Shown piece by piece: positions 10,346-63,120 of a stretch of 64,000 nucleotides of DNA. Location of the stretch: the NCBI GenBank assembly GCA_951804945.1, contig OX638151.1, positions 64,914,001-64,978,000 of the forward strand, written 5' to 3'. The notes beneath the pieces were generated by a model. The model searched no databases, was not told the origin of the DNA, and worked only from the letters and a program-made list of their open reading frames with translations. Origin of the DNA: Podarcis cretensis (lineage: Eukaryota). A program made the translations under genes and the position numbers. Numbering within the stretch: position 1 is the first letter of the stretch; each line of letters starts with the position of its first letter.

Positions 10346-12339
10346 CTCAGATCCTGTGTGCTCTGAGACTATGCCAGAGGTCACCAGCCTTTTTGATCCA
10401 GAGAGCCAGAAAACTGGCATGGGCATCACACACACCGCAACCTATTCTATTGGCTGCAGCACAATGCTATTTCACACCTAATTTCAGCAGGGAGGCTGAA
10501 GAACCCTCTTGGAGCAGGCCAAAGGCTTGTCTAGTCCAGCATTTTGTTCTCACAGTGGTTCACAATTCCCCTAAGAAGCCTGCAAGCAAAATCTGTATGC
10601 AATAGCACTCTTCCCAACTAGTATTCAGAGGTAAACTGTCTCCAATATTCGAGGTAGAATAATAAATCCCTGTGTTCTACTTCTGTATTTGTATTTCTCA
10701 GAAGCACCGCACTGATATTCTCTTGGGAAACAAAGAAACTCAGCCCCCTTCTACATTAGTCATTTTTCTCTGGAATTCACATCATTATAAAAATCCAGAT
10801 GATATGACTGAGGCACCATTGCAGCTCAGTATTTTCCCTGCTGAGCTCCTCAATTTGGCTTTTGGCAATTATTCAGACTTCCAATGCAACCGCAGTGCTT
10901 TCCTTGTGGACCAGCCAAGCGCTATTGATTCACCTAGCAAGAACTTGATATTGTTATTCTATTACAGCATTGCCATGATGGGCTTTGGAGATGCAATTTA
11001 TTTGTCAGCTTTGTGCAGCTGGCTTTTGGATATGTGAACAAGAATAATGGAGCTCGTATGTCCACAAGGCTATCAATCTAGAGGGCAACTTCACATGCAG
11101 GAAGGGATTGATGCTGTTGCCCCAACCCAGAGAAGGAAGTCCACATGTGGAATCAAGTTTCTTGCTCAAGCAGCAGATGCAATGCAGAGAGGTGTGCAAT
11201 TGCATCATGATGCTGAACTGGCTACTGTGTCAATGCGTCTTTCAGTGGGGGTGTCTATTCGTATCTGGCTTTCATACAAAAAATTGCACCCCCTTAGAGT
11301 TGGATCAAGAGTACTGAGATGCTCGGTTTGGGGAAAGGAGTGGAGAAGGTCTTTGCACAGGAGCTCAGACTCTACCTCAGAATCCTTTGTTTTCTTCTAA
11401 AGTATTGATGTCCAAGGAATTACTGGAAATCCAAATGTGTGGTGTTTCAGGCTCAAATGAACCCACGAGTCTAGCCAATTTAGCCTGCATAGGTTCAACC
11501 TGGCAAACCTCATCTCTAAATACTCTTCTGTTCTTGCACTTTGGAACACAACTGGAACACACAGTCCTAAATTTATTTACTCCAAAGGAAGTGCCATTCA
11601 TTTCAATGAAGCTTCCATGTCTGGATGCTTAGGGTTGCCCCCTAAGTCTTTCCCATGGCTTCTGTCTGGGTAGTAATATATTCCTAAAGCAAAATGTATA
11701 GAACACTCACATAATCTTTTCAGATCCCAAAGTAAATGTTTTCACATAGCTGTGGACTGAATCCAAGCCAACGTCTATAAGATGACATTTCTGGAAGCAT
11801 TTGCATCTTTACATTATATTTAGTTTACACAATATGCTACACAACTGGAGGAAACAGCCCTGCAAGCCAGCCCAGCATTTGACCTCTTACAGAGCTGCCT
11901 TTGAGAAACAGCTATTCCATTCACCTCCCCCTGCACTAGCACCTTTTACATCAGACAATTTCAAAAACTGGGAACAACTTTGAAGTCTGTGACCGTTCTT
12001 ATATAGTTTACTTAAAAACATCACAACGCAAGTGAAACACTTTATTCATGCACTGCTTCACCCCATCCCCTCCCTCCTCTCCAGTTTTCAGCACTTGAGC
12101 ACAGGCTTGGATGACTTGCCTTGCTATATATCCCCCCCCCCAGTACCTTTATCAGAAACAAGACTGATTTATGGTACAATTTGCTTGGGGATCTAAGTGT
12201 CAGTTCAGCACATCAGAGTTCTGGACATGTTTGAATCAGGCTTCTTAGCTTCATTGGGTTGAGAACTGAGGCATATGTTGTGTCCTGTTCACCACTTTCC
12301 TTGACAAGCATCAGGCTGTTGATTTTAGCACCATGTCTC

Positions 12340-13030
12340 TTTCAAGAATTTACCATGTATGGTGGACAAGCCCAGTGATTGAGGGCTTTTGGAAGAAGGC
12401 TTTTCATGAGCTCCAACTGATTACATGGCAGCCGGTGACCCCAGATCCATTTATGCACTATTGTCTAGTTTTAATGACGGAGGCAAAAAATACTTTACAA
12501 ATTTATTGGTTTCCTTTTCTGTTGTGGCTACCCTATGGTGGTAGCCTCAACTGGAAATTAGTAGCAACCAATCTGATGGAAGAGTGGCATTCTCAGATTT
12601 GGTTGGTGGCCCTTATGGAAAAACTTACTTGCCAATTGTGGGAAAGGAACACCACAAAGAGAATGTATGTTTTATGTTTTATGTGAAATGTTTTTGTTTT
12701 ATTAAGTATTTTTTGGTCAAAGAGCATGACTGGTTTCTTACATCGGCTCATGGAATGATATTACAGGCTGATTGCGTTAATTTCTTCTTCTCTTTATGCT
12801 TGGCTAGTTGATTACTTCCATGATGCTTGTCTGATTGTTTCATTTAAGTGTTTGTTTGTTTGTTTGTTTGTTTGTTTGTTTGTGTGTTATGGATTGTATA
12901 TTTGTGGGAGATTTTCTGTTGTCTACTTGTTTTGCTCTTGTGTTTACTGTAACCAAAAGGTGTACGTGCTCCGAGTTTTTATTGCTTCTTTGCTTCTTTT
13001 TCTCTGACATGGAAAGACTTAATAAACTGT
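12340..13030 (+). mobile_element. Old L1-clade 3' fragment with (TTTG)n in the 3' UTR
   Basis: Degenerate HVWWTSPVIEGFW and W..ALMEKLT motifs (compare 29503-29694); AATAAA at 13021-13026. Confidence 0.6.
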
Positions 13031-15845: not shown

Positions 15846-16180
15846 TGTTATGTACTAAGTTGAATAGGATCCAAAATGCAGCAGTCTGATTGGTCCTAGA
15901 ACAATAGGATTCAGAATGCAGCAGTCTGATTGGTCCTAGAACCATAGGATTCAGAATGCAGCAGTCTGATTGGGCCGCAGGAGCCACCCAATCCAACTCC
16001 GGGTGGAAGTGAATCTGCAACATGATTGACCTACAGGAGAATCCCAGAATTAGCCAATCATGTGGGGCCCATTGTGTAAATAATGTATATAAAGCAGACA
16101 TTTCAGGGGAACTTCCATTCCTCACTACTCTGAGCTGAATAAAGAGCATGAAATCCACACTCGACTCCGAGTATATTTCA
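15846..16180 (+). mobile_element. Solo LTR (335 bp) with 5-bp TSD
   Basis: TG...CA ends; TSD AAAAT at 15841-15845 and 16181-16185; TATATAAA near 16086; AATAAA at 16138-16143; about three 40-bp tandem units at 15863-15973, each with ATTGG. Confidence 0.88.
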
Positions 16181-17125: not shown

Positions 17126-18447
17126 GGGAAATTAGGCAGGTACTTAATTCATCAATGGCATTTCAAAGTGCTTAATTTTATCTGGACTGGTCCTATTTTA
17201 AAAAATGGAATGGCCCTGTTGTTGGAGGAAAGTTGTTTTCTTTTGTTTGCAGGAAGTTGTATTGCTCATTGCCAAGTGATCACAGAGCACTTACTAATGG
17301 ACAGGGGTGACATTTGCAAAACCACAATAGACAGGCTAGTTGGGGATGGTAAAATAACAGTTTTCTAATTTTTTTTAAGATTTAAATTTCCCCAGTACCA
17401 GCACATTGTGCTTTGAATTCCAGGAAAATACAATGTTCTCATAATGGAAATGCAACCTGGAGGAAAGATACCTGAATTCTTCTTTGGATATAACAAATAA
17501 GCAATTATTGGGCATTTATTGTGCTAAAATGATGGTGTGGGAAAGTGCTGAGGTGGTAGAGGAAACGAGGGAGAGGCTCCAATTTCTTTGAGGGAGGAGG
17601 AAGTCCCCACCCGCCTTCTTGTGAACAAGCAAAGAGGCAGGAGAATGCAGCTAAAGCAAACAACAAAACAGGGTCCTAGGTTGTACATGCTGACAAGAGG
17701 CTAGGCACTGGGATGAAAATGTTTCATCCCAAGTATCCAATATCTGTCCCAATGGACATCTAGTAGGAGGAAGGAGGAAGCATGAGGTTAAGAATTCAGA
17801 AAGATTGGACAGATAGTCAAAGAGCCCGGCTAGATTAGATAGGCTGCAATTCGTTTACCAAGAGCAAGTCCCTGGGGAGTTTCACAATCACAAACATCCT
17901 ACAAGCATTAGAGAGTTTCAACTGTTTAGAAGCCAGTGATAATTGGTAGAACGATGTGTTATTTTATATGCATTTATAGTGATAGCAAACCAACCATTAG
18001 AATGCCTGTGTTTGGGCAAGACTTTGGTTCCTAGACTTTTGTACAGCACCTACAGCCTTTTAGACTTTGGTACCACGTTGCTGCTGCTTCTTCATCATTA
18101 ACGTCAGTATTCAGATCCTTCCTGGATATTAAAACTGTCCTCATAAATGAACAATCTGAAACAGAGGTGAAGATAGGAGGCAATGAATATAAATATATTC
18201 CCGTGTACAAGGAGCCATTTGGGGCGTGGGGAGGATAAATGAGGTATTACGTCAAGGCAGATGGTGATGATTTCAATGCGCACATGGCTTTTTTGCATAA
18301 ATGTGTTCCAGGAGCGGGCCATTTAAATGGCCAGGGTGTGGACCCAAGAAAGCCTTCCTGATCCATTGGCTCCACCCCCTAACCCAGCCCGTGTCCAAGC
18401 CTGCAGCCCCATTTGCCAATTCTGGGTGCAGGCTAGCATCCTGTTCC

Positions 18448-19876
18448 TAGAATCATAGAATCATAGAATCATAGAGTTGGAAGAGACCACAAGGGCCATC
18501 GAGTCCAACCCCCTGCCAAGCAGGAAACACCATCAGAGCACTCCTGACATATGGTTGTCAAGCCTCTGCTTAAAGACCTCCAAAGAAGGAGACTCCACCA
18601 CACTCCTTGGCAGCAAATTCCACTGTCGAACAGCTCTTACTGTCAAGAAGTTCTTCCTAATGTTTAGGTGGAATCTTCTTTCTTGTAGTTTGGATCCATT
18701 GCTCTGTGTCAGCTTCTCTGGAGCAGCAGAAAACAATCTTTCTCCCTCCTCTATGTGACATCCTTTTATATATTTGAACATGGCTATCCCTCTTCTCCAG
18801 GCTAAACATGCCCAGCTCCCTTACCTGTTCCTCATAAGGCATTGTTTCCAGGCCTTTGACCATTTTGGTTGCCCTCCTCTGGACACGTTCCAGTTTGTCA
18901 GTGTCCTTCTTGAACTGTGGTGCCCAGAACTGGACACAGTACTCCAGGTGAGGTCTGACCAGAGCAGAATACAGTGGCACTATTACTTCCCTTGATCTAG
19001 ATGCTATACTCCTATTGATGCAGCCCAGAATTGCATTGGCTTTTTTAGCTGCCGCGTCACATTGTTGGCTCATGTCAAGTTTGTGGTCAACCAAGACTCC
19101 TAGATCCTTTTCACATGTACTGCTCTCAAGCCAGGTGTCACCCATCTTGTATTTGTGCCTCTCATATTTTTTTTACCCAAGTGCAATACTTTACATTTCT
19201 CCCTGTTAAAATTCATCTTGTTTGTTTTGGCCCAGTTCTCTAATCTGTCAAGGTCGTTTTGAAGTGTGATCCTGTCCTCTGGGGTGTTAGCCACCCCTCC
19301 CAGTTTGGTGTCATCTGCAAATTTGATCAGGATGCCCTTGAGTCCATCATCCAAGTCGTTGATAAAGATGTTGAATAAGACCGGGCCCAAGACAGAACCC
19401 TGTGGCACCCCACTAGTCACTCTCCTCCAGGATGAAGAGGAACCATTGATGAGCACCCTTTGGGTTCAGTCAGTCAGCCAGTTACAAATCCACTGAGTGG
19501 TAGCATAGTCAAGTCCGCATTTTACCAGCTTCTTTACAAGAATATCATGGGGCACCTTGTCAAATGCCTTTCTGAAATCAAGGTAGGCTACATCCACTGT
19601 GTTACCTTCATCTACCAGGCTTGTAATTTTGTCAAAAAACGAGATCAGGTTAGTCTGACATGACTTATTTTTCAGAAATCCATGCTGACTATTGGTGATC
19701 ACAGCATTCCTTTCTAGGTGCTCACAGACTGTTTGCTTAATGATCTGCTCCAGAATCTTCCCTGGTATTGATGTCAGACTGACTGGGCGGTAATTATTTG
19801 GGTCCTCTCTTTTCCCCTTTTTGAAAATAGGGACAACAATTGCCCTCCTCCAGTCTGCTGGGACTTCGCCTGTTCT
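18448..19876 (-). mobile_element. Young 5'-truncated CR1 LINE (RT region to tail), frameshifted
   Basis: ORFs 19466-20020, 19100-19456, 18657-19145 and 18533-18781 give [49 protein letters not shown]; (TTCTATGA)3 tail. Confidence 0.97.
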
Positions 19877-20168
19877 TCCACACCACCCATTATGCCTACA
19901 CCACCTATCCGTAGAGGAAGCTGAACCCGGGATTCCCACGTCGGGGTCTGAGAGGGGTCTCCACCATCCTGCAACGCTGCAGGACCAAAAGGGGTGAGCA
20001 GTCTTGCGATACAACAGCAAGAATACATGTCAATTCATCATTACAATAAACTGTCTGATTCCAGTTCATTTCAAAACATAATATGGTTGTCCAAAATAAC
20101 TACAAAATCAAAACAGATCACTTTAATTTCAGAACACTTTAAAATTTGTGGCAATAATCAACTGACCA

Positions 20169-25271: not shown

Positions 25272-25681
25272 CAAGCCAAGCCTTATGAGGAACGGTTGAA
25301 GGAGCTAGGTATGTTTAGCCTGGAAAAGAGACTGAGAGGGGATAAGATAGCCATCTTCAAATACATAAAGGTCTGTCACATGGAAGATGGAGCAAGCTTG
25401 TTTTCTCCTGCTCTGGAAGGTAGCACTCAAACCAATGGCTTCAAGTTACAAGAAAGGAGATTCCGACTAAACACACGAAAAAACTTTCTGGCAGTAAGAG
25501 CTGTTTGACAGTGGAACAGTCTCCCTTGGGAGGTGGTGGACTCTCCTTCCTTGGAGGTTTTTAAGCAGAAGTTGGATGGTCATCTATCTTGGATGCTCTA
25601 GTTTAGATTCCTGCATTGCAGAGGGTTGGAGTAGTTGACCCTTGAGGTCCCTTCCAACTCTAAGAGTCTGCAATTCTATGA
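25272..25681 (+). mobile_element. CR1 3' end
   Basis: ORF 25296-25508 [30 protein letters not shown]; tail ends TTCTATGA. Confidence 0.92.
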
Positions 25682-29714: not shown

Positions 29715-31483
29715 ACAAGATACATTTTCAATTATGTGGCAAAAAGTATTTTGTATATAATGCCTCCTGTGAAATATGCTACTATTTGGAATTATTTGAA
29801 ACTTTTCAGTTTCAAGTGAAAATGTCATAAGGATCTTAGGGATAACTTGATATTTATCAACATAGTAATATCAATAATAATAGTCTTTCCTAGGGTTTGT
29901 GAATGCAACAACCAAAATTTGTTTTAGTGTGCATGTTTTTAATTTCAGTTTTCATGCAATGGTTTTTTTCCCTATTCATTTTTTTTTTTTGTATGCTATT
30001 GAACTTTACATTAGTGGTTAAATAAATAAAAAGATTTATAAATGAGCAGTCAGGAATAAGCATAGGAGCCCATAATATCCTCAGGCTAACAAAGCAAAAA
30101 TTCAATTTTGTTGGGGGGAGGGGAGAGGAAACCCTCTCCTTAAGAAATTAAAACACTATTATCTTTTCAAAGACAGCTTATAGCTGCACAGACATATGCC
30201 TTGCAATGCCATCCTATCTTCCTGCTAACTTGCTAGGGTGCTGACAGCGTTCTGCCTGCAGAATGCATTTAACCCTGAAGGCCCTCTTAAAAGGGCATGG
30301 CGTATTTCTTCACAAACCTTCATGCTCCTAGAAAGCGAAGAGAAATATGTGACTGCAAAAATAGCATTTGAACGTGTTACCTTTGCAGAGCAATGAATCG
30401 CCTTTGGACAGAGGGAAACTGACCCCCTCCTCCTCTCTTATCCATCTCCTCACCCCTACCTCCAAGAACATCTGGTTTTGAAATATTAACTCATAAGGAC
30501 TATTGACTTAAGATGATTAAATGAGGCAACTGTTTTCCATCAATAGTCCTAAAATCCTTTTTATTATCTTCCCCATGTCAGACTTTGATAAGGAGCAAGA
30601 AAGATGAAGCTATTTATATTGCGGACGACTGCTACCAAAAGTATTTAAAACCAGCTACGCAGCTAAGTCAAGAGTGTGCGTCTAAATCAGCCAAAATGAA
30701 AGACTTCGCTTTCAAAGAAGTTATTAAAACTGACAAAACCAGTTTTGACCTTACAATCTTTTCGGTGTCAAAATCATTCTTGCTTTTATTATAAGGAGAC
30801 GCTCGAACCATTCTCTGTAAAGGTTGGTTGGAAATTTGCTTCAGAGCAAACATGCATTTGTTTGTCTTCATTTTGGATGAATGTAGGCAATTCTTTTAGA
30901 GTAGCAGTTTAGCATGGAGTGAATAGAACCAACTTCTTGAACTGGTCAGCTGCCTGAGCAACTATCCCTCTAAGGCAATAAAGAGAGCTGCTTCTGCTGC
31001 AATGGATTAACATGGGGACCTTTCTGCATATCTTACCAAGAGCCTATCTACCACCCCCTTGCTTCCCCAGCTTTCTAACTGAGCACAAGGACAGCGTAAG
31101 ATTATTTTCAGCACTTTTCTAGAAAAGCAGCTGATCCGATGGGAAAATTGTACCTGAGCTGCTTTCTTTAAAATCAGTTTTTATTAACGATTTTCTTTTG
31201 TTACAAAACAAACAAATAAACGAGGAGGTGTACATATAGCACCCCTACTTTCAAGCCAGTCTTTTGAGTTACTGGTGGGAGCAACATTAGGAGGCAACAT
31301 TAGGAGGCAGAGTCACAGCAAGGGTCCTGCTTACTGGGAGGGAAAATAGCCTCTTCGATTGCAGGGAGCCAGGGGTGGTGGTGGCAGGTAAGCCCTGTCC
31401 CACATAATAAATCACAAGACATAGCACACAAATGCCATTTGAATGGCAATTTGAATGGCCCACAAATATTTTATTGGGGGGTG

Positions 31484-40600: not shown

Positions 40601-41386
40601 CTGGATGGCAAGATCCAGGTTTGGGGCAAGTACGCTTTGGTAAAGGAACCCCAGCAGAAATTTAAAATCACAAAATATGCAGCAAAATAAAGCATGAAAA
40701 TAGACTGTTAAGCCTTTAAAATAAGCCCTAAGTTGCTTCCAAAGTTCCCCTCTTCCCCTTGCATAGAAAAAGACCACACATTTTTTCAAGTTAAAAATGG
40801 TTTACAACTCTCCAAAGGTCAGAGTAATATGCTTTTCCATACAGCAGTCAGAAAACACACAGTAAAACTTGGCTTAGTTCCTAAATTATTGGTACAATTT
40901 AGGTTCAGACCTCTTTACACCTTGAGCTTCTCGGGTAGACTGAGGTGAGCAAAAGGCTTGGCTTGATTACCTTCCTTACAAAGTGAAGCAGAGTGACCTA
41001 GCTAAGCCTGGAAGGACAGTTTATTCTGTAGCATTAACCCCTTCATGCATTTATGAGACTTGAGAATGTTAGTTATATGAGGCTGTTTATCCCATTTTAA
41101 ATGTTAACAATTTTTAGCTTGAAACATGCCCAATTGCTGTCTTGCTTGACAGTTAAATCAGTGTGCCGTCTTTCAGCCTCACAAACTGAGGATATTGGTG
41201 GCCTTTCCTGTGGCTAGGGACTCAGCTACACAGATGCAAATAAAACATTGTAAATGTGTTGTAAAGTGCAATATACAAATATGACACTAGATGGCAAAAG
41301 TGAGCTATGCAAAATTCAATGTATTTTTCAAACCATTTTTTTAAAAAAGGCATTTTCACAGCATTTATTACATGTGTGTAGATTCC

Positions 41387-42506
41387 TTTTTTTAAAAAAT
41401 AATTTTTATTAACTGGCCAATCACATCAAATTAAATCACATCATATAAATTCCGAATTACAAAGCCAAATTTTTAAATTTTGTTGGGGGAACCCATACTT
41501 CAAGATCCAAAGGGGAATTCAGATCATCTTCTTATTACTGCGTTAATGTCCAAATCAGTCCCAATCAGTCCAAACAAAGTTCATAATTCTATCCAGTCTT
41601 ATCTTGGTGTTGCCACACCATATCTTGTTCATATAATTTCTCTTTTTCGTTTACGATCTCTTCTGTTAGTCTCCTTAAGCCGATAGCAAGTGTAATAATC
41701 CTGTGTGGATTTCCCGTTCCTTCACTAAGTCCAGATGGTTTCCATATATCTCCTTCGTAGATAACATCACTTTATCCATCGTAATTTTTGGCATTTGTCG
41801 CTCTTAAGTCCCACCGAGGAGTTGATTCACGATATGTAAACAACTCTATTTCTCTCTTTCTCCTCCCAGACCCAAGAGCTCCCACAATGCCTCACAAAAT
41901 GGCGAACGGCATTTTTTCCTGACTGTGTCACTCCAAAACTCTTAGCTTTCCAGCTTCATCTTGAAACATTGCTTTGGATCGAAAGTTTATCTCCACACAG
42001 CCTTAAATCCACAGCTTAAGTCCTTAATTTCTGACTCATTAGGGGAGGGGGATTCTTGTTAAATCACATAAAAAGGTAGAGGCAGGTTTTTCCCCCCCTC
42101 CCCCCTCAGTCATTACCGTATCTTGACGTTCTTCTCGTATTTTATTGTTGTCTTGTTATCAGAGATCTCTTCTGTCAGCAGTATTTACTCCCCTTTTTCC
42201 TTGATGTATGTGCAATTAATCATGTCCAAATTATTTCTTTTAAAGATCACTGCAACCAGCGGCGCGAATCGGAGACGGCGTCGAGGAGTGCCGAAAATCC
42301 CACAGGAGGGCTTTGTGCCTAGTGCCCCCACCCCCACAAATTCGGGGGTGGTATAGGGCACAGCAGGCAAGGGCCGCCCCCCACCCCCATAATCCTGGGG
42401 GGGTTAAGGAGGCTAATTACCCCCATCATAGCCTCCAAATTACCTCGTGTGGGTCGGAGAGATGTTATTGTCAGCCATCTTCCGATGCGCCACCTAGTGG
42501 CCCCCC
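41387..42506 (-). mobile_element. Complete 1.1-kb non-autonomous L1-dependent retroposon (HAL1-like or L1 5'-derived)
   Basis: Perfect 18-bp TSD TACATGTGTGTAGATTCC (41369-41386, 42507-42524); begins GGGGGG; CpG-rich 5' part; AATAAA (41405-41410, minus) and A tail; no RT or EN motifs. Confidence 0.82.
42474..42500 (-). promoter_or_regulatory. CTCF-consensus and YY1-like motifs at the element's 5' end
   Basis: Minus strand CCACTAGGTGGCGC (42487-42500) fits the CTCF core; AAGATGGC (42474-42481) fits the YY1 core found at L1 5' ends. Motif match only. Confidence 0.55.
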
Positions 42507-42702
42507 TACATGTGTGTAGATTCCACCTAGATTAGACATTAGTTTTATCTAAAGTTGTGGTCAGGAACATAGAAGGTATTTCTCTGTTGACCTGGTGTCA
42601 GGATTTGACAAGGCTAGAACCAGTAACCTTCCATTCTGCATGCAGCCGTCCCATGTCGCGATCTATCAGAATTGCAGTTTGGAACATCTTACCGGCGAAG
42701 CA

Positions 42703-43597
42703 TGTTGCATCCACATAATACACTCAATGCCATTTTCAACCACTTGAATAGCCATGCCTCCCCCCGTAAAGAATCCTGGGAACTCTAATTTCATAAGGGT
42801 GCTGAGACACCCCTCACAGAGAACTCCTCATAATGAACTACAGTTCCCAGGATTCTTGCAGAGAAAGGACACCATGGCTGTTAAAGTGGTATAATAGAGC
42901 TTTATACCACTGGTCCCATCACCTCCTGGCAAATAGAAGGGGGAGAAATGGAGGCAGTGAGAGATTTTTCTTTCTTGGGCTCCATGATCACTGCAGATAG
43001 TGACAGCAGCCACAAAATTAAAAGACGCCTGCTTCTTGGGAGAAAAGCAATGACAAACCTAGACAGCATCTTTAAAAGTAGAGACATCACCTTGCCAACA
43101 AAGGTCCGTATAGCAAAAGCCATGGTTTTCCCAGTAGTGAAGTATGGAAGTGAAAGCTGGACCATAAAGAAGGCTGATCGCTGAAGAATTGATGCTTTTG
43201 AATTATGGTGCTGGAGGAGACTCTTGAGAGTCCCATGGACTGCAAGAAGATCAAACCTATCCATTCTTAAGGAAATCAGCCCTAACTGCTCACTGGAAGG
43301 GCAGATTGTGAAGCTGAGGCTCCAATATTTTGGCCACCTCATGAGAAGAGAAGACTCCCTGGAAAAGACCCTGATGTTGGGAAAGATGGAGGGCACAAGG
43401 AGAAGGGGACGACAGAGGACGAGATGGTTGGGCAGTGTTCTCGAAGCTACAAACATGAGTCTGACCAAACTGCGGGAGGCAGTGGAAGACAGAAGTACCT
43501 GGCGTGCTCTGGTTCATGGGGTCACGAAGAGTCAGAAACGACTAAATGACTAAACAACAACAACAAAGAGCTTTAAATGTATGGTGTAGATGTGGCC
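42703..43597. mobile_element. Non-autonomous DNA element interrupted by BovB
   Basis: Degenerate TIRs GCATCCACATAATACA / TGTATGGTGTAGATGTGGCC; core as at 9080-9255. Confidence 0.55.
42905..43566 (+). mobile_element. BovB (RTE) LINE 3' portion with 9-bp TSD
   Basis: MEAVRDFSFLGSMITADSDSSHKIKRRLLLGRKAM...LKLQYFGH-like...WRALVHGVTKS; (CAA)n tail; TSD AGAGCTTTA at 42896-42904 and 43567-43575. Confidence 0.95.
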
Positions 43598-47039: not shown

Positions 47040-48311
47040 CCTAGAGATGAAAAGCTGGGAGGAAGAAGTGGGAAGTACTCAAACCATATGTTTCCGGCCT
47101 TTGTAACTTATCCCAACAATATCAATATAAGCTTCAATAAACAAGAGGGGGAAGATTTGAGAGCAACAGAAGCAGACCTCAGAACACTCCAAGCAGCCTT
47201 TGGAAGGCACAGTCCACAGAATGAGTCCTGCTACTCCCCAGAGGAGGAGGAGACAAGTGGTGGTGATAGGTGATGCCCTACTGAGGGGAACAGAGGCAGT
47301 AGTGTGTGGAAGAAACAGGATGTCTTCCAGGTGCAAAGATTCACGATGTGATGGAGAAGTTGCCAAGTCTTATAAAGCTCACTGACCGCTACCCCTTTTT
47401 TCTGATTCACATGGGTACAAATAATACTGCCACACATAGCCTGTAACATATAGCAAGGGACTATGAGACACTGGGCAAGGAGCTGAAGTGGCTTGGAGCA
47501 CAGGTAGTCTTTTCACCACTCCTTCCTGTTAAAAGGAAGAAGAGAGGAAAATATTTGAGGTAAACCACTGGCTGTGCAGGTGGTGTTGTCCAGAAGGATT
47601 TGGCTTCTTTGAAGATGGCCTTCACTTCCTTGAGGTAGGACTTCTGGCAAGAGATGGGCTGCACCTCACAGCAGTTGGCAAGAATGTGTTTGCCAAGAGT
47701 CTTGAGAATCTGTTCAGGAGAGCTTTAACCTGGATCTTGAGGGGGAGGGAGAAAACAATACGAATGACAAAAGAGCACCTGGCACTGGAGATAATAGCTT
47801 CATTGATGCTCAGGAAACGGAGGTGGTGCTCCAGAAACCTGCTAAAGGGCAAGAAACTACTGGAACGTGTGCAGAGGAAGGCAACCAAGATGATCAAAGG
47901 TCTGGAAACTAAGCCTTATGAGGAGTGCTTGAAGGAACTGGGTATGTTTAGCCTGGAAAAGAGGAGTCTGAGAGGAGATACGGGAAACATCTTTAAATAT
48001 CTTAAGGGCTGTCACATGGAGGAGAGAGCATGCTTGTTTTCTCCTACTCTGGTGGATAGGATTTGAACTAATGGTTTCAAGATGCAAAAAAGGAGATTCC
48101 AAATAAGCATTCAGAAAAACTTTATGGCAGTAAGAGCTGTTCAGCAGTGGAAGAGTCTCCCTTGGGAGGTGGTGGACCCTCCTTCCTTGGAGGTTCTGAA
48201 GCAGAGGTTGGATGTCCACCTGTCATGGATGCTTTAGCTGAGATTCCTGCAAGGGTCATCTGTTGGACTAGATGACCCTTGGGGTCCCTTCCAGCTCTAA
48301 TATTCTATGAT
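47040..48311 (+). mobile_element. CR1 with decayed ORF1 (SGNH/GDSL esterase-like) joined to the last ~400 bp of ORF2/3' UTR
   Basis: VVVIGDALLRG (~47258-47290), HMGTNNT (~47410) and DGLHL (~47653) esterase blocks; then LERVQRKATKMIKGLE from ~47855 and TTCTATGA tail. Confidence 0.85.
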
Positions 48312-57061: not shown

Positions 57062-57533
57062 GCTAGCACAGGGTATTTTTCAGAACTGATCACTGTATTT
57101 TCAAATATCCATACCCTGTACTGGATCTGGTTCAGGAAAAGTCATGATTCCCCATAGAAAAACTTCCATGTATATAGAAAGCATGATAGAAACATGATAG
57201 AGAAAGTTCCAGCCTGACCCTCTGCTTGATCCGCTGGTTTGCAGTATGCAAAGTGTTTTTGTAATAAAAAAATAAACAAGTTTTTCAACTGGAGTCAAAA
57301 GCAGTTATAATCCAAGGAGGATTATGTCAGATGATTTTTTCTAAATGTTTTCTCTCTATGCTGAGAGAACAGCTGATGCAGTGCACCCAAAAGTGGAATG
57401 CATGCAGCATCAAGGCAAACCTCACCCAGTTCTTGTTCCATGGATAAGAAAGGAAAAAAACAACTCAGGTGGTGAAAAGAAGGCCATTTCCCTTTATCAT
57501 GTACCACACAGGAAGCAAAAATCACCACCCTCC

Positions 57534-58156
57534 TAGAATCATAGAATCATAGAATCATAGAGTTGGAAGAGACCACAAGGGCCATCGAGTCCAACCCCAT
57601 GCCAAGCAGGAAACACCATCAGAGCACTCCTGACATATGGTTGTCAAGCCTCTGCTTAAAGACCTCCAAAGAAGGAGACTCCACCACACTCCTTGGCAGC
57701 AAATTCCACTGTCGAACAGCTCTTACTGTCAGGAAGTTCTTCCTAATGTTTAGGTGGAATCTTCTTTCTTGTAGTTTGGAACCATTGCTCCGTGTCCGCT
57801 TCTCTGGAGCAACAGAAAACAACCTTTCTCCCTCCTCTATGTGACATCCTTTTATATATTTGAACATGGCTATCATATCACCCCTTAACCTCCTCTTCTC
57901 CAGGCTAAACATGCCCAGCTCTCTTAGCCGTTCTTCATAAGGCATCGTTTCCAGACCTTTGACCATTTTGGTTGCCCTCCTCTGGACACGTTCCAGTTTG
58001 TCAGTGTCCTTCTTGAACTGTGGTGCCCAGAACTGGACACAGTACTCCAGGTGAGGTCTGACCAGAGCAGAATACAGTGGCACTATTACTTCCCTTGATC
58101 TAGATGCAATACTCCTATTGATGCAGCCCAGAATTGCATTGGCTTTTTAAGCTGCC
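57534..58156 (-). mobile_element. Young 5'-truncated CR1
   Basis: Uninterrupted ORF 57619-58083 (RPHLEYC...FKQRLD); near-identical to the 18448 copy; (TTCTATGA)3 tail. Confidence 0.96.
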
Positions 58157-62936: not shown

Positions 62937-63120
62937 CCAGTTGGGTAGCCGTGTTGGTCTGCCATAGTCAAAACAAAAAAATTTCCTTCCAGTAGCACCT
63001 TAAAGACCAACTAAGTCAGTTCTTGGTATGAGCTTTCGTGTGCATGCACACGAAAGCTCATACCAAGAACTGACTTAGTTGGTCTTTAAGGTGCTACTGG
63101 AAGGAAATTTTTTTGTTTTG
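62937..63120. mobile_element. Penelope-like pLTR fragment in fold-back (inverted) arrangement, 16-bp TSD
   Basis: GTAGCCGTGTTGGTCTG...GTAGCACCTTAAAGACCAACT pLTR motif; perfect palindrome at 62969-63120; TSD TGCTATTGTTTTAGTT at 62921-62936 and 63119-63134. Confidence 0.85.

Follow-up and report, generated by a model that had tools for sequence, protein, structure and literature searches.

L1 retrotransposons strongly prefer their own RNA, and the best-understood way around this preference is the 7SL-derived Alu domain. That domain has been proposed to hold its RNA at the place of ORF2p synthesis (PMC11760393; this and the other papers are cited for the accessible part of their text). The retroposons SVA and Sadhu are mobilised by LINEs and have been set apart from both SINEs and deleted LINEs (PMC4494074). 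HAL1 elements combine L1-type ends and target site duplications (TSDs) with the lack of a reverse transcriptase (PMC5753468, PMC5786205), and encode ORF1p (PMC5753468). The ORF-less bipartite LINEs RIME, NARTc, Bov-A and Vingi-N are non-coding, fixed in length, conserved at their ends and probably transcribed by Pol II (PMC5786205); the accessible part of that paper records such elements for RTE, Ingi, Vingi and R2 alone, and both of their ends match a known parent. Squamate repeats have been described as poorly classified (PMC5381603).

Here we analysed a retroposon copy in a stretch of lizard DNA of 64,000 nucleotides (the whole stretch is called the window below). The copy belongs to a large superfamily of non-autonomous retroposons, with at least a thousand copies in the genome. 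Like HAL1, the family has L1-type ends, TSDs and no reverse transcriptase, but it keeps no long frame. Like the bipartite LINEs, it is non-coding, of fixed length, conserved at its ends and probably made by Pol II, but no parent matching both ends was found. The explanation that we prefer overall, and consider likely, is an L1-mobilised non-coding Pol II retroposon with a CTCF/YY1 head and a folded 5′ domain.

Results

The copy occupies positions 41387-42506 on the minus strand, as do all features of the element given below. Its match to other genome copies places it in the youngest subfamily of lineage I, and it diverges by 0.81% from the consensus of 30 close copies. It is bracketed by exact 18-bp repeats at 42507-42524 (5′ TSD) and 41369-41386 (3′ TSD), the perfect duplication that an earlier note on this DNA had described around a minus-strand unit. 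Read from 42506 to 41387, the head also has the order reported there: six G (42501-42506), which comparison of copies identifies as the fixed start of the element, a CTCF-like 14-mer (42487-42500), a 5-nt spacer and AAGATGGC. The 14-mer, delimited by lineage comparison, matches what we take to be the CTCF consensus, and is a candidate site on sequence grounds. A YY1-type motif (42474-42481; for the motif see PMC5381506) overlaps the first ATG, which stands in strong Kozak context and opens a 12-codon ORF (42440-42478, seen in the lineage comparison); a splice-donor-like motif lies at 42438-42446. At the other end, a 3′ block conserved between lineages (41394-41530) includes AATAAA at 41410-41405 and is followed by a tail of seven A (41387-41393), again as claimed. 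The 5′ ~300 bp, which had been called CpG-rich, is indeed GC-rich (56%, 14 CpG), but CpG is not specific to this part, the observed/expected ratio being 0.61 in the 5′ 300 nt and 0.60 in the remainder of the element, against 0.23 in the window. G-rich and C-rich inverted arms at 42042-42105 are kept across lineages, with two of nine predicted pairs changed on both sides. No long tandem array was found within the element.

The window holds several other repeats. There are 3′ fragments of two L1 lineages (742-1125 and 12270-12686; ORF2 C-terminal zinc-knuckle region), CR1-like LINE fragments at 18433-20029, 25273-25681, 47859-48311 and 57519-58156, classed by eye from their translations and including two that are 97-98% identical, and an RTE/BovB-like fragment (42902-43553, also classed by eye), which starts ~400 bp beyond the 5′ TSD of the element. 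A perfect 76-bp inverted repeat without spacer lies at 62969-63120 and a 40-bp unit in three tandem copies at 15863-15982. A stretch of 47 nt at 30073-30119 is weakly like the conserved 3′ block of the family (E 0.09), probably by chance. A plasmid collection gave no match to the element.

We found that the best 40 genome matches scored, of 2,363 candidates, were all full length and 98-100% identical, and that 29 of 30 fetched copies carried a flanking repeat of 14-28 bp of their own, so the window element is not a chance arrangement. Thirty of the 40 scored matches differ by a mean of 0.42% from their consensus, a value that the way they were selected pushes downwards. Exact patterns for the young subfamilies returned 467 heads and 652 tails (reversed controls 0), and a degenerate CTCF+YY1 head pattern returned 1,013 exact genome matches (reversed control 0). 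When heads were taken in positional order (n=30), 28 reached the same 3′ end, one was rearranged and one broke at nt 447; among tails taken in the same way (n=30), 22 belonged to full-length copies. The 5′-truncated copies mostly have TSDs of their own. These matches, heads and tails bear out the earlier proposal of a full-length multi-copy family with shared ends.

Searches with divergent copies and relaxed heads recovered further lineages; lineage I is a ladder of subfamilies, followed by lineages II-V. Identity to the window's subfamily is 88, 79, 68, 62-63 and 56%. The at least five lineages are all 1.10-1.17 kb long and have the same head and tail, despite differences of up to 44%, and conservation is highest in the first 100 and last 130 nt of the element. 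Copies of lineage II lie 1.4-3.6% from their lineage consensus, and two lineage V copies at different loci, with different TSDs, are 99.6% identical; such near-identical young copies indicate that several lineages were recently active. Words of the element were found in 20 of 24 listed public sequencing runs (10 organism labels, 11 studies). In one copy (L050) the 3′ end is inverted upstream of the head, and another (L056) has an internal duplication of ~70 nt. Two copies (L374 and L375; G000:C7, 55.06 and 55.15 Mb) have an identical TSD and probably sit in a segmental duplication.

The 40 of 40 full-length matches at 98-100% identity rule out a single-copy processed transcript. Processed pseudogenes of one gene were rejected on the nested subfamilies, the at least five lineages with young copies of their own and the lack of a spliced form. 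Premature polyadenylation of an L1 5′ piece was rejected for both full-length L1 families recovered locally. An internal AATAAA lies near nt 356 in lineage I and, contrary to expectation, has not produced short copies.

Of the distinct copies whose 3′ end is intact (n=177), 143 are flanked by TSDs of at least 10 bp, with a median of 17 bp. At target position -1 we found T in 61% and C in 27% (pyrimidine 88%), and A in 44-75% at +1 to +4, a target preference of Y/AAAA. An insertion signature with such TSDs and target is described for LINE/L1 elements in PMC2848041. The family also has a 3′ A tail, shows random 5′ truncation and lacks EN and RT motifs of its own, the last as the earlier note had stated. 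It is thus highly probable that an L1-clade element mobilises the family; the TSDs, target site, A tail and shared ends all agree with the L1-mobilised, non-autonomous family that had been proposed.

Local L1 copies have 17-18-bp TSDs (three cases), and at the 3′ end local L1s have an AATAAA-containing terminus identical or nearly identical to that of the family, the last 14 nt being common to both. We infer the partner from the insertion signatures and from this AT-rich 14-nt terminus, which includes the poly(A) signal. At one locus (L092, G000:C2:90597400-90605500) a full-length 5.9-kb L1 with a 17-bp TSD lies antisense within a young family copy (98-99%), inside the predicted stem P0 (see below); its ORF1 has 337 codons, and its ORF2 frame has one stop between the EN and RT parts. 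Because it sits inside a 98-99% copy, this L1 was active after the young copy had inserted. The ORF2 C-terminus of a local full-length L1 is up to 89% identical to Podarcis muralis proteins over its full length and 40-43% identical to Anolis proteins, which makes a lacertid lizard the most likely host. A second young L1 family (L254/L273 at G000:C13, about 16.434-16.442 Mb, and L253, L255, L257 and L258) is ~8 kb long, with copies 98-99% identical; its 5′ UTR is long and of low complexity, its ORFs are separated by ~0.7 kb, and its ORF2 frame has 1,290 codons.

An autonomous partner that shares the head or body was not found among the L1-containing loci examined. Three head-tail pairs 6-7 kb apart were rejected as candidates, as they are interrupted family copies (by the L1 in L092 and by an LTR element in L111 and L202), and so were six early-breaking heads (L061, L094, L211-L214), which do not continue into L1. 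By eye, the LTR retrotransposons within the L111 and L202 copies are copia-like and gypsy-like.

Across lineages the core of the CTCF 14-mer varies only at two degenerate positions (Y and K), a conservation that is biased by the recovery of some lineages via the CTCF+YY1 pattern itself. The YY1-type motif was invariant in 8 of 8 lineage sequences compared, and the conserved CTCF+YY1 head of the original proposal holds across lineages. The strict CTCF core has 1,720 exact matches in the genome (control 3), and family heads make up 49 of the first 100. Insertions of the family would seed candidate CTCF sites, known here as motifs alone. A different young repeat (L318-L329, L349, L350) is the source of many other strict-core matches, including 12 of 12 fetched sites of a variant; the motif in L350 lies inside a 1,317-codon copia-like ORF and may be a coding coincidence.

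A start with a G-run and a YY1 site had been taken as a hallmark of L1. This is the mammalian pattern (PMC5381506), and the two local full-length L1 families start instead with the lizard clade-1 motif described in the same paper. The lizard clade-2 start motif has 7 matches in the genome (control 0), none of them linked to the family.

CpG sites in the copies mutate ~4-9 times faster than other sites. Within the first 30 nt, CpG changes number 5/248 versus 9/1,585 at other sites in the young group and 24/172 versus 17/1,096 at other sites in the oldA group, and 0/24 in lineage II, the faster rate thus being seen in two of the three groups only. The fast CpG mutation suggests that many copies are methylated and silent, and counts against a function of the head. 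The start of the 12-codon ORF is shared by 17 of 17 lineage sequences and its stop, which overlaps the donor-like motif, by 16 of 17; in lineage III the ORF is extended by a 1-nt deletion. Lineages differ within it by synonymous as well as non-synonymous changes, which gives no sign of selection on the peptide.

The 5′ ~205 nt of the element are predicted to form RNA helices with compensatory changes, in a fold that overlaps the CTCF-consensus 14-mer, the YY1/Kozak ATG and the 12-codon ORF. The model consists of hairpin H1 (42454-42485), nearly invariant and thus showing little covariation, and a multi-helix domain (42299-42453) with H2, H3, H4/H5 and a closing stem P0 around a four-way junction. 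Shared helices were first hinted at by single-sequence folds. In an alignment of 19 copies (A2), pairing holds in 93.4% of cells, and both sides have changed in 9 of 58 pairs (shuffle mean 5.5, the value being reached by 14 of 500; slid controls 2-4), and at the level of lineages there are 7 double Watson-Crick changes versus 0.94 expected (0 of 20,000 simulations), or 4 versus 0.5 (P 0.0003) without the hard-to-align H3, all counts being inflated by the derivation of the fold from the same lineages. Out of sample, 10 of 10 copies of lineages IV/V score 117-175 bits against the model. With these lineages added, 18 of 58 pairs are changed on both sides in alignment A3, which is fitted to the model, and a plain alignment (A4) recovers H1, H2, H3 and H4/H5 with new compensations, including some in H4/H5. 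In addition, paired columns are about half as divergent as unpaired ones (18/116 versus 22/67; 10/116 versus 14/65). The closing stem P0 is less secure than the predicted hairpins: it has a probability of at least 0.7 in only 10 of 19 single-sequence folds, and is present in the A2 consensus fold and absent from that of A4. H1 is absent from the A2 consensus fold. The 3′ end has 8 predicted pairs, none of them covarying.

The loci and profiles examined gave no parent L1, tRNA, 7SL or Rfam origin for the element; more remote relatives, or a parent outside these sequence-level searches, may have been missed. The strongest rival, with perhaps a one-in-three standing in our judgement, is that the family descends from an L1 or Tx1 element that long ago lost its interior (a bipartite derivative), leaving the parent's 5′ UTR, a decayed ORF2 C-terminus and the 3′ UTR, the parent being extinct, rare or unsampled. 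Indeed, the body is purine-rich (A 34-36%, G 26-27%), the 3′ end resembles local L1 ends and the head resembles the mammalian L1 start (PMC5381506). The oldA consensus, aligned with frameshifts to the L1 ORF2 C-terminus, scores 59 versus 33±3.9 for shuffles (0 of 150), and a best-of-181 null reached 48 in 12 shuffles. This ORF2 register is, however, absent from the other lineages, except for a weaker score of 48, within the null, in neighbouring midB, while an implausible alignment scores 62 for another lineage. The likeness to ORF2 is suggestive by eye, but profile searches were not significant. DNA profiles of the family showed no homology to 50 loci containing L1 or to two types of L1 5′ UTR (best E 0.006, for a 58-nt candidate piece). 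The two full-length local families recovered showed no homology to the element in their 5′ UTRs, the RNA model matched no L1 5′ UTR, and the three head-tail pairs described above are nested insertions. Comparison of both ends with autonomous LINEs gave 14 shared nt at the terminus and a single ORF2 signal that was not replicated. A bipartite origin is compatible with the mechanism proposed below, as it concerns origin only.

It is unlikely that the family derives from a cellular gene's 5′ end, with a CTCF/YY1 promoter, a short first exon and an intronic poly(A) signal, which was retroposed unspliced and then became self-propagating. Such an origin could account for the placing of the first ATG, with its strong Kozak context, within the YY1 motif, for the 12 codons and the donor-like motif that follow in all lineages, and for an acceptor-like pyrimidine-CAG near nt 470 in lineages IV/V. 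However, spliced copies were not found: the 15 genome matches that lack the donor G are all unspliced copies with a point mutation, and none joins a second exon. The sole head with a longer CTCF-YY1 spacer reads as a family head with one extra base, and covarying helices that extend across the exon and the "intron" would be unexpected for such an origin.

Transcription by Pol II, on which our preferred reading of the family as an L1-mobilised retroposon also draws, is probable from the T-runs, the terminal poly(A) signal, the lack of a B box and the lack of a tRNA, 7SL or Rfam source. Each of 17 lineage sequences contains 3-6 internal stretches of at least four T. The earlier statement that the element has no tRNA boxes is right for the B box, which was not found in any of eight sequences scanned, and ARAGORN found no tRNA in the window and Rfam no convincing match on the element; it is not right for an A-box-like 11-mer, present in the window's subfamily and two close ones. 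This 11-mer of the three youngest subfamilies, absent from the five older consensus or copy sequences scanned, could speak for a Pol III SINE whose tRNA or 7SL head has decayed, as could the best local match of the window's subfamily, to a tRNA-Met of the genome (score 30, reached by 1 of 200 shuffles; 26 distinct tRNAs tested). The match, however, is lost in older lineages, where 20, 167 and 187 of 200 shuffles reach it, and the genome's 7SL gene has no similarity to the element, which, with the T-runs and the missing B box, makes a Pol III SINE very improbable. No RNA run was listed as a holder of the element among the 24 public runs. Pieces of it occur, as contigs only, in three runs presumed to be RNA and in one of unstated kind, which is uninformative on transcription.

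The frame at 41589-41912 is as the earlier note gave it (107 codons, stops at codons 7 and 47, the quoted ending), but its reading as an ORF1 remnant of HAL1 type did not hold. Both stops lie in the consensus of 30 young copies, and indels between lineages are multiples of 3 in 2/21, 4/20, 4/33 and 6/40 cases. In 17 lineage sequences no stretch without a stop exceeds 119 codons, as compared with 337 and 431 codons in local ORF1 frames. When alignments to two local ORF1s allowed for frameshifts, scores stayed within the null in 9 of 10 tests, and the one marginal similarity was not replicated. No homologue was found among longer proteins; a Pfam search of the element returned nothing, and a PF02994 search of the genome also found nothing and is uninformative. 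A HAL1-type element with an ORF1 functional in master copies, which frames of 100-119 codons in some copies and subfamilies might suggest, and against which the Pfam negatives weigh little as the local L1 ORF1 also escapes Pfam, is therefore the least credible of these readings.

Discussion

The copy number, shared and conserved ends, TSDs, target preference, lack of a conserved long frame and covarying helices of the family are read directly from its copies. As an L1-mobilised Pol II retroposon, it may work as follows. An internal promoter, positioned by YY1 (CTCF/YY1), would give a capped, polyadenylated RNA, and its first ATG and 12-codon ORF would load a ribosome. The folded 5′ domain would keep this RNA at the site of L1 ORF2p synthesis. 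Reverse transcription would then be primed at Y/AAAA nicks by the A tail and the L1-like terminus, and every full-length insertion would deposit a CTCF-consensus motif. The role of the fold in capturing the ribosome or ORF2p is drawn by analogy, and we put it forward only tentatively. A bolder joint reading, which we regard as doubtful, is that of an undescribed class of vertebrate L1 parasites that owes nothing to tRNA, 7SL, 5S or a LINE, a Pol II retroposon that captures ORF2p by its own four-way junction and 12-codon ORF, whose promoter needs CTCF, and whose insertions have over tens of millions of years supplied lacertid genomes with CTCF sites that are bound.

In vertebrates tens of thousands of CTCF sites are bound. 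The ~1,000 sites of the family would probably be a few percent of all bound sites, and many copies look methylated. Even so, some lineage-specific chromatin boundaries in lizards may stem from the family, and its insertions may serve as markers. Its copies stay about three-quarters full length, and it has been active in several lineages. With an RNA fold of its own and a tiny ORF, it offers a second, testable way round the preference of L1 for its own RNA.

The literature, as covered by titles and the starts of abstracts, gave no description of the family; supplements of lizard genome papers could hold repeat libraries, and an automated, unclassified consensus may well exist in Dfam/Repbase. 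The earlier reader had seen neither the depth across lineages nor the covariation in the 5′ helices, nor the 12-codon ORF. The predicted helices of the 5′ ~205 nt, with compensatory changes and in overlap with the CTCF, YY1 and ORF features, appear to be new. By the list in the accessible part of PMC5786205, a deleted L1 would itself be a new case.

Among the known systems, the Alu domain model (PMC11760393) likewise has a structured 5′ RNA domain in an A-tailed L1 parasite, but the lizard element has no similarity to 7SL, and its predicted fold is larger and different. The SVA, LAVA, PVA and FVA elements of apes (PMC5753468, PMC4494074) are, like the family, non-coding, L1-mobilised and of Pol II type with a poly(A) signal, and neither SINEs nor deleted LINEs (PMC4494074). 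The lizard family differs from them in lacking an Alu-derived part, a VNTR, a hexamer repeat and an ERV part, in its uniform length, in having no identifiable donor sequences and in its much deeper lineage diversity. An SVA-type composite was rejected, given no 7SL similarity, no long tandem array and uniform length.

Sadhu of Arabidopsis, as the accessible part of PMC2848041 describes it, differs in having ~20 copies versus about a thousand full-length ones here, and in being a plant rather than a vertebrate element. The lizard family also has CTCF and YY1 motifs, AATAAA and covarying 5′ helices; the term "secondary structure" is absent from the accessible main text of PMC2848041. Both are non-coding, of fixed length (~0.9-1.1 kb in Sadhu), with a conserved 5′ motif and poly(A), LINE-type TSDs with T and then an A-run at the nick, no A/B boxes, no tRNA or 5S similarity, deeply diverged subfamilies and no known source RNA. 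A relation in sequence between the two is not expected. On these sequence features the family appears to work most like Sadhu, and would extend the Sadhu/SVA-like retroposons to reptiles.
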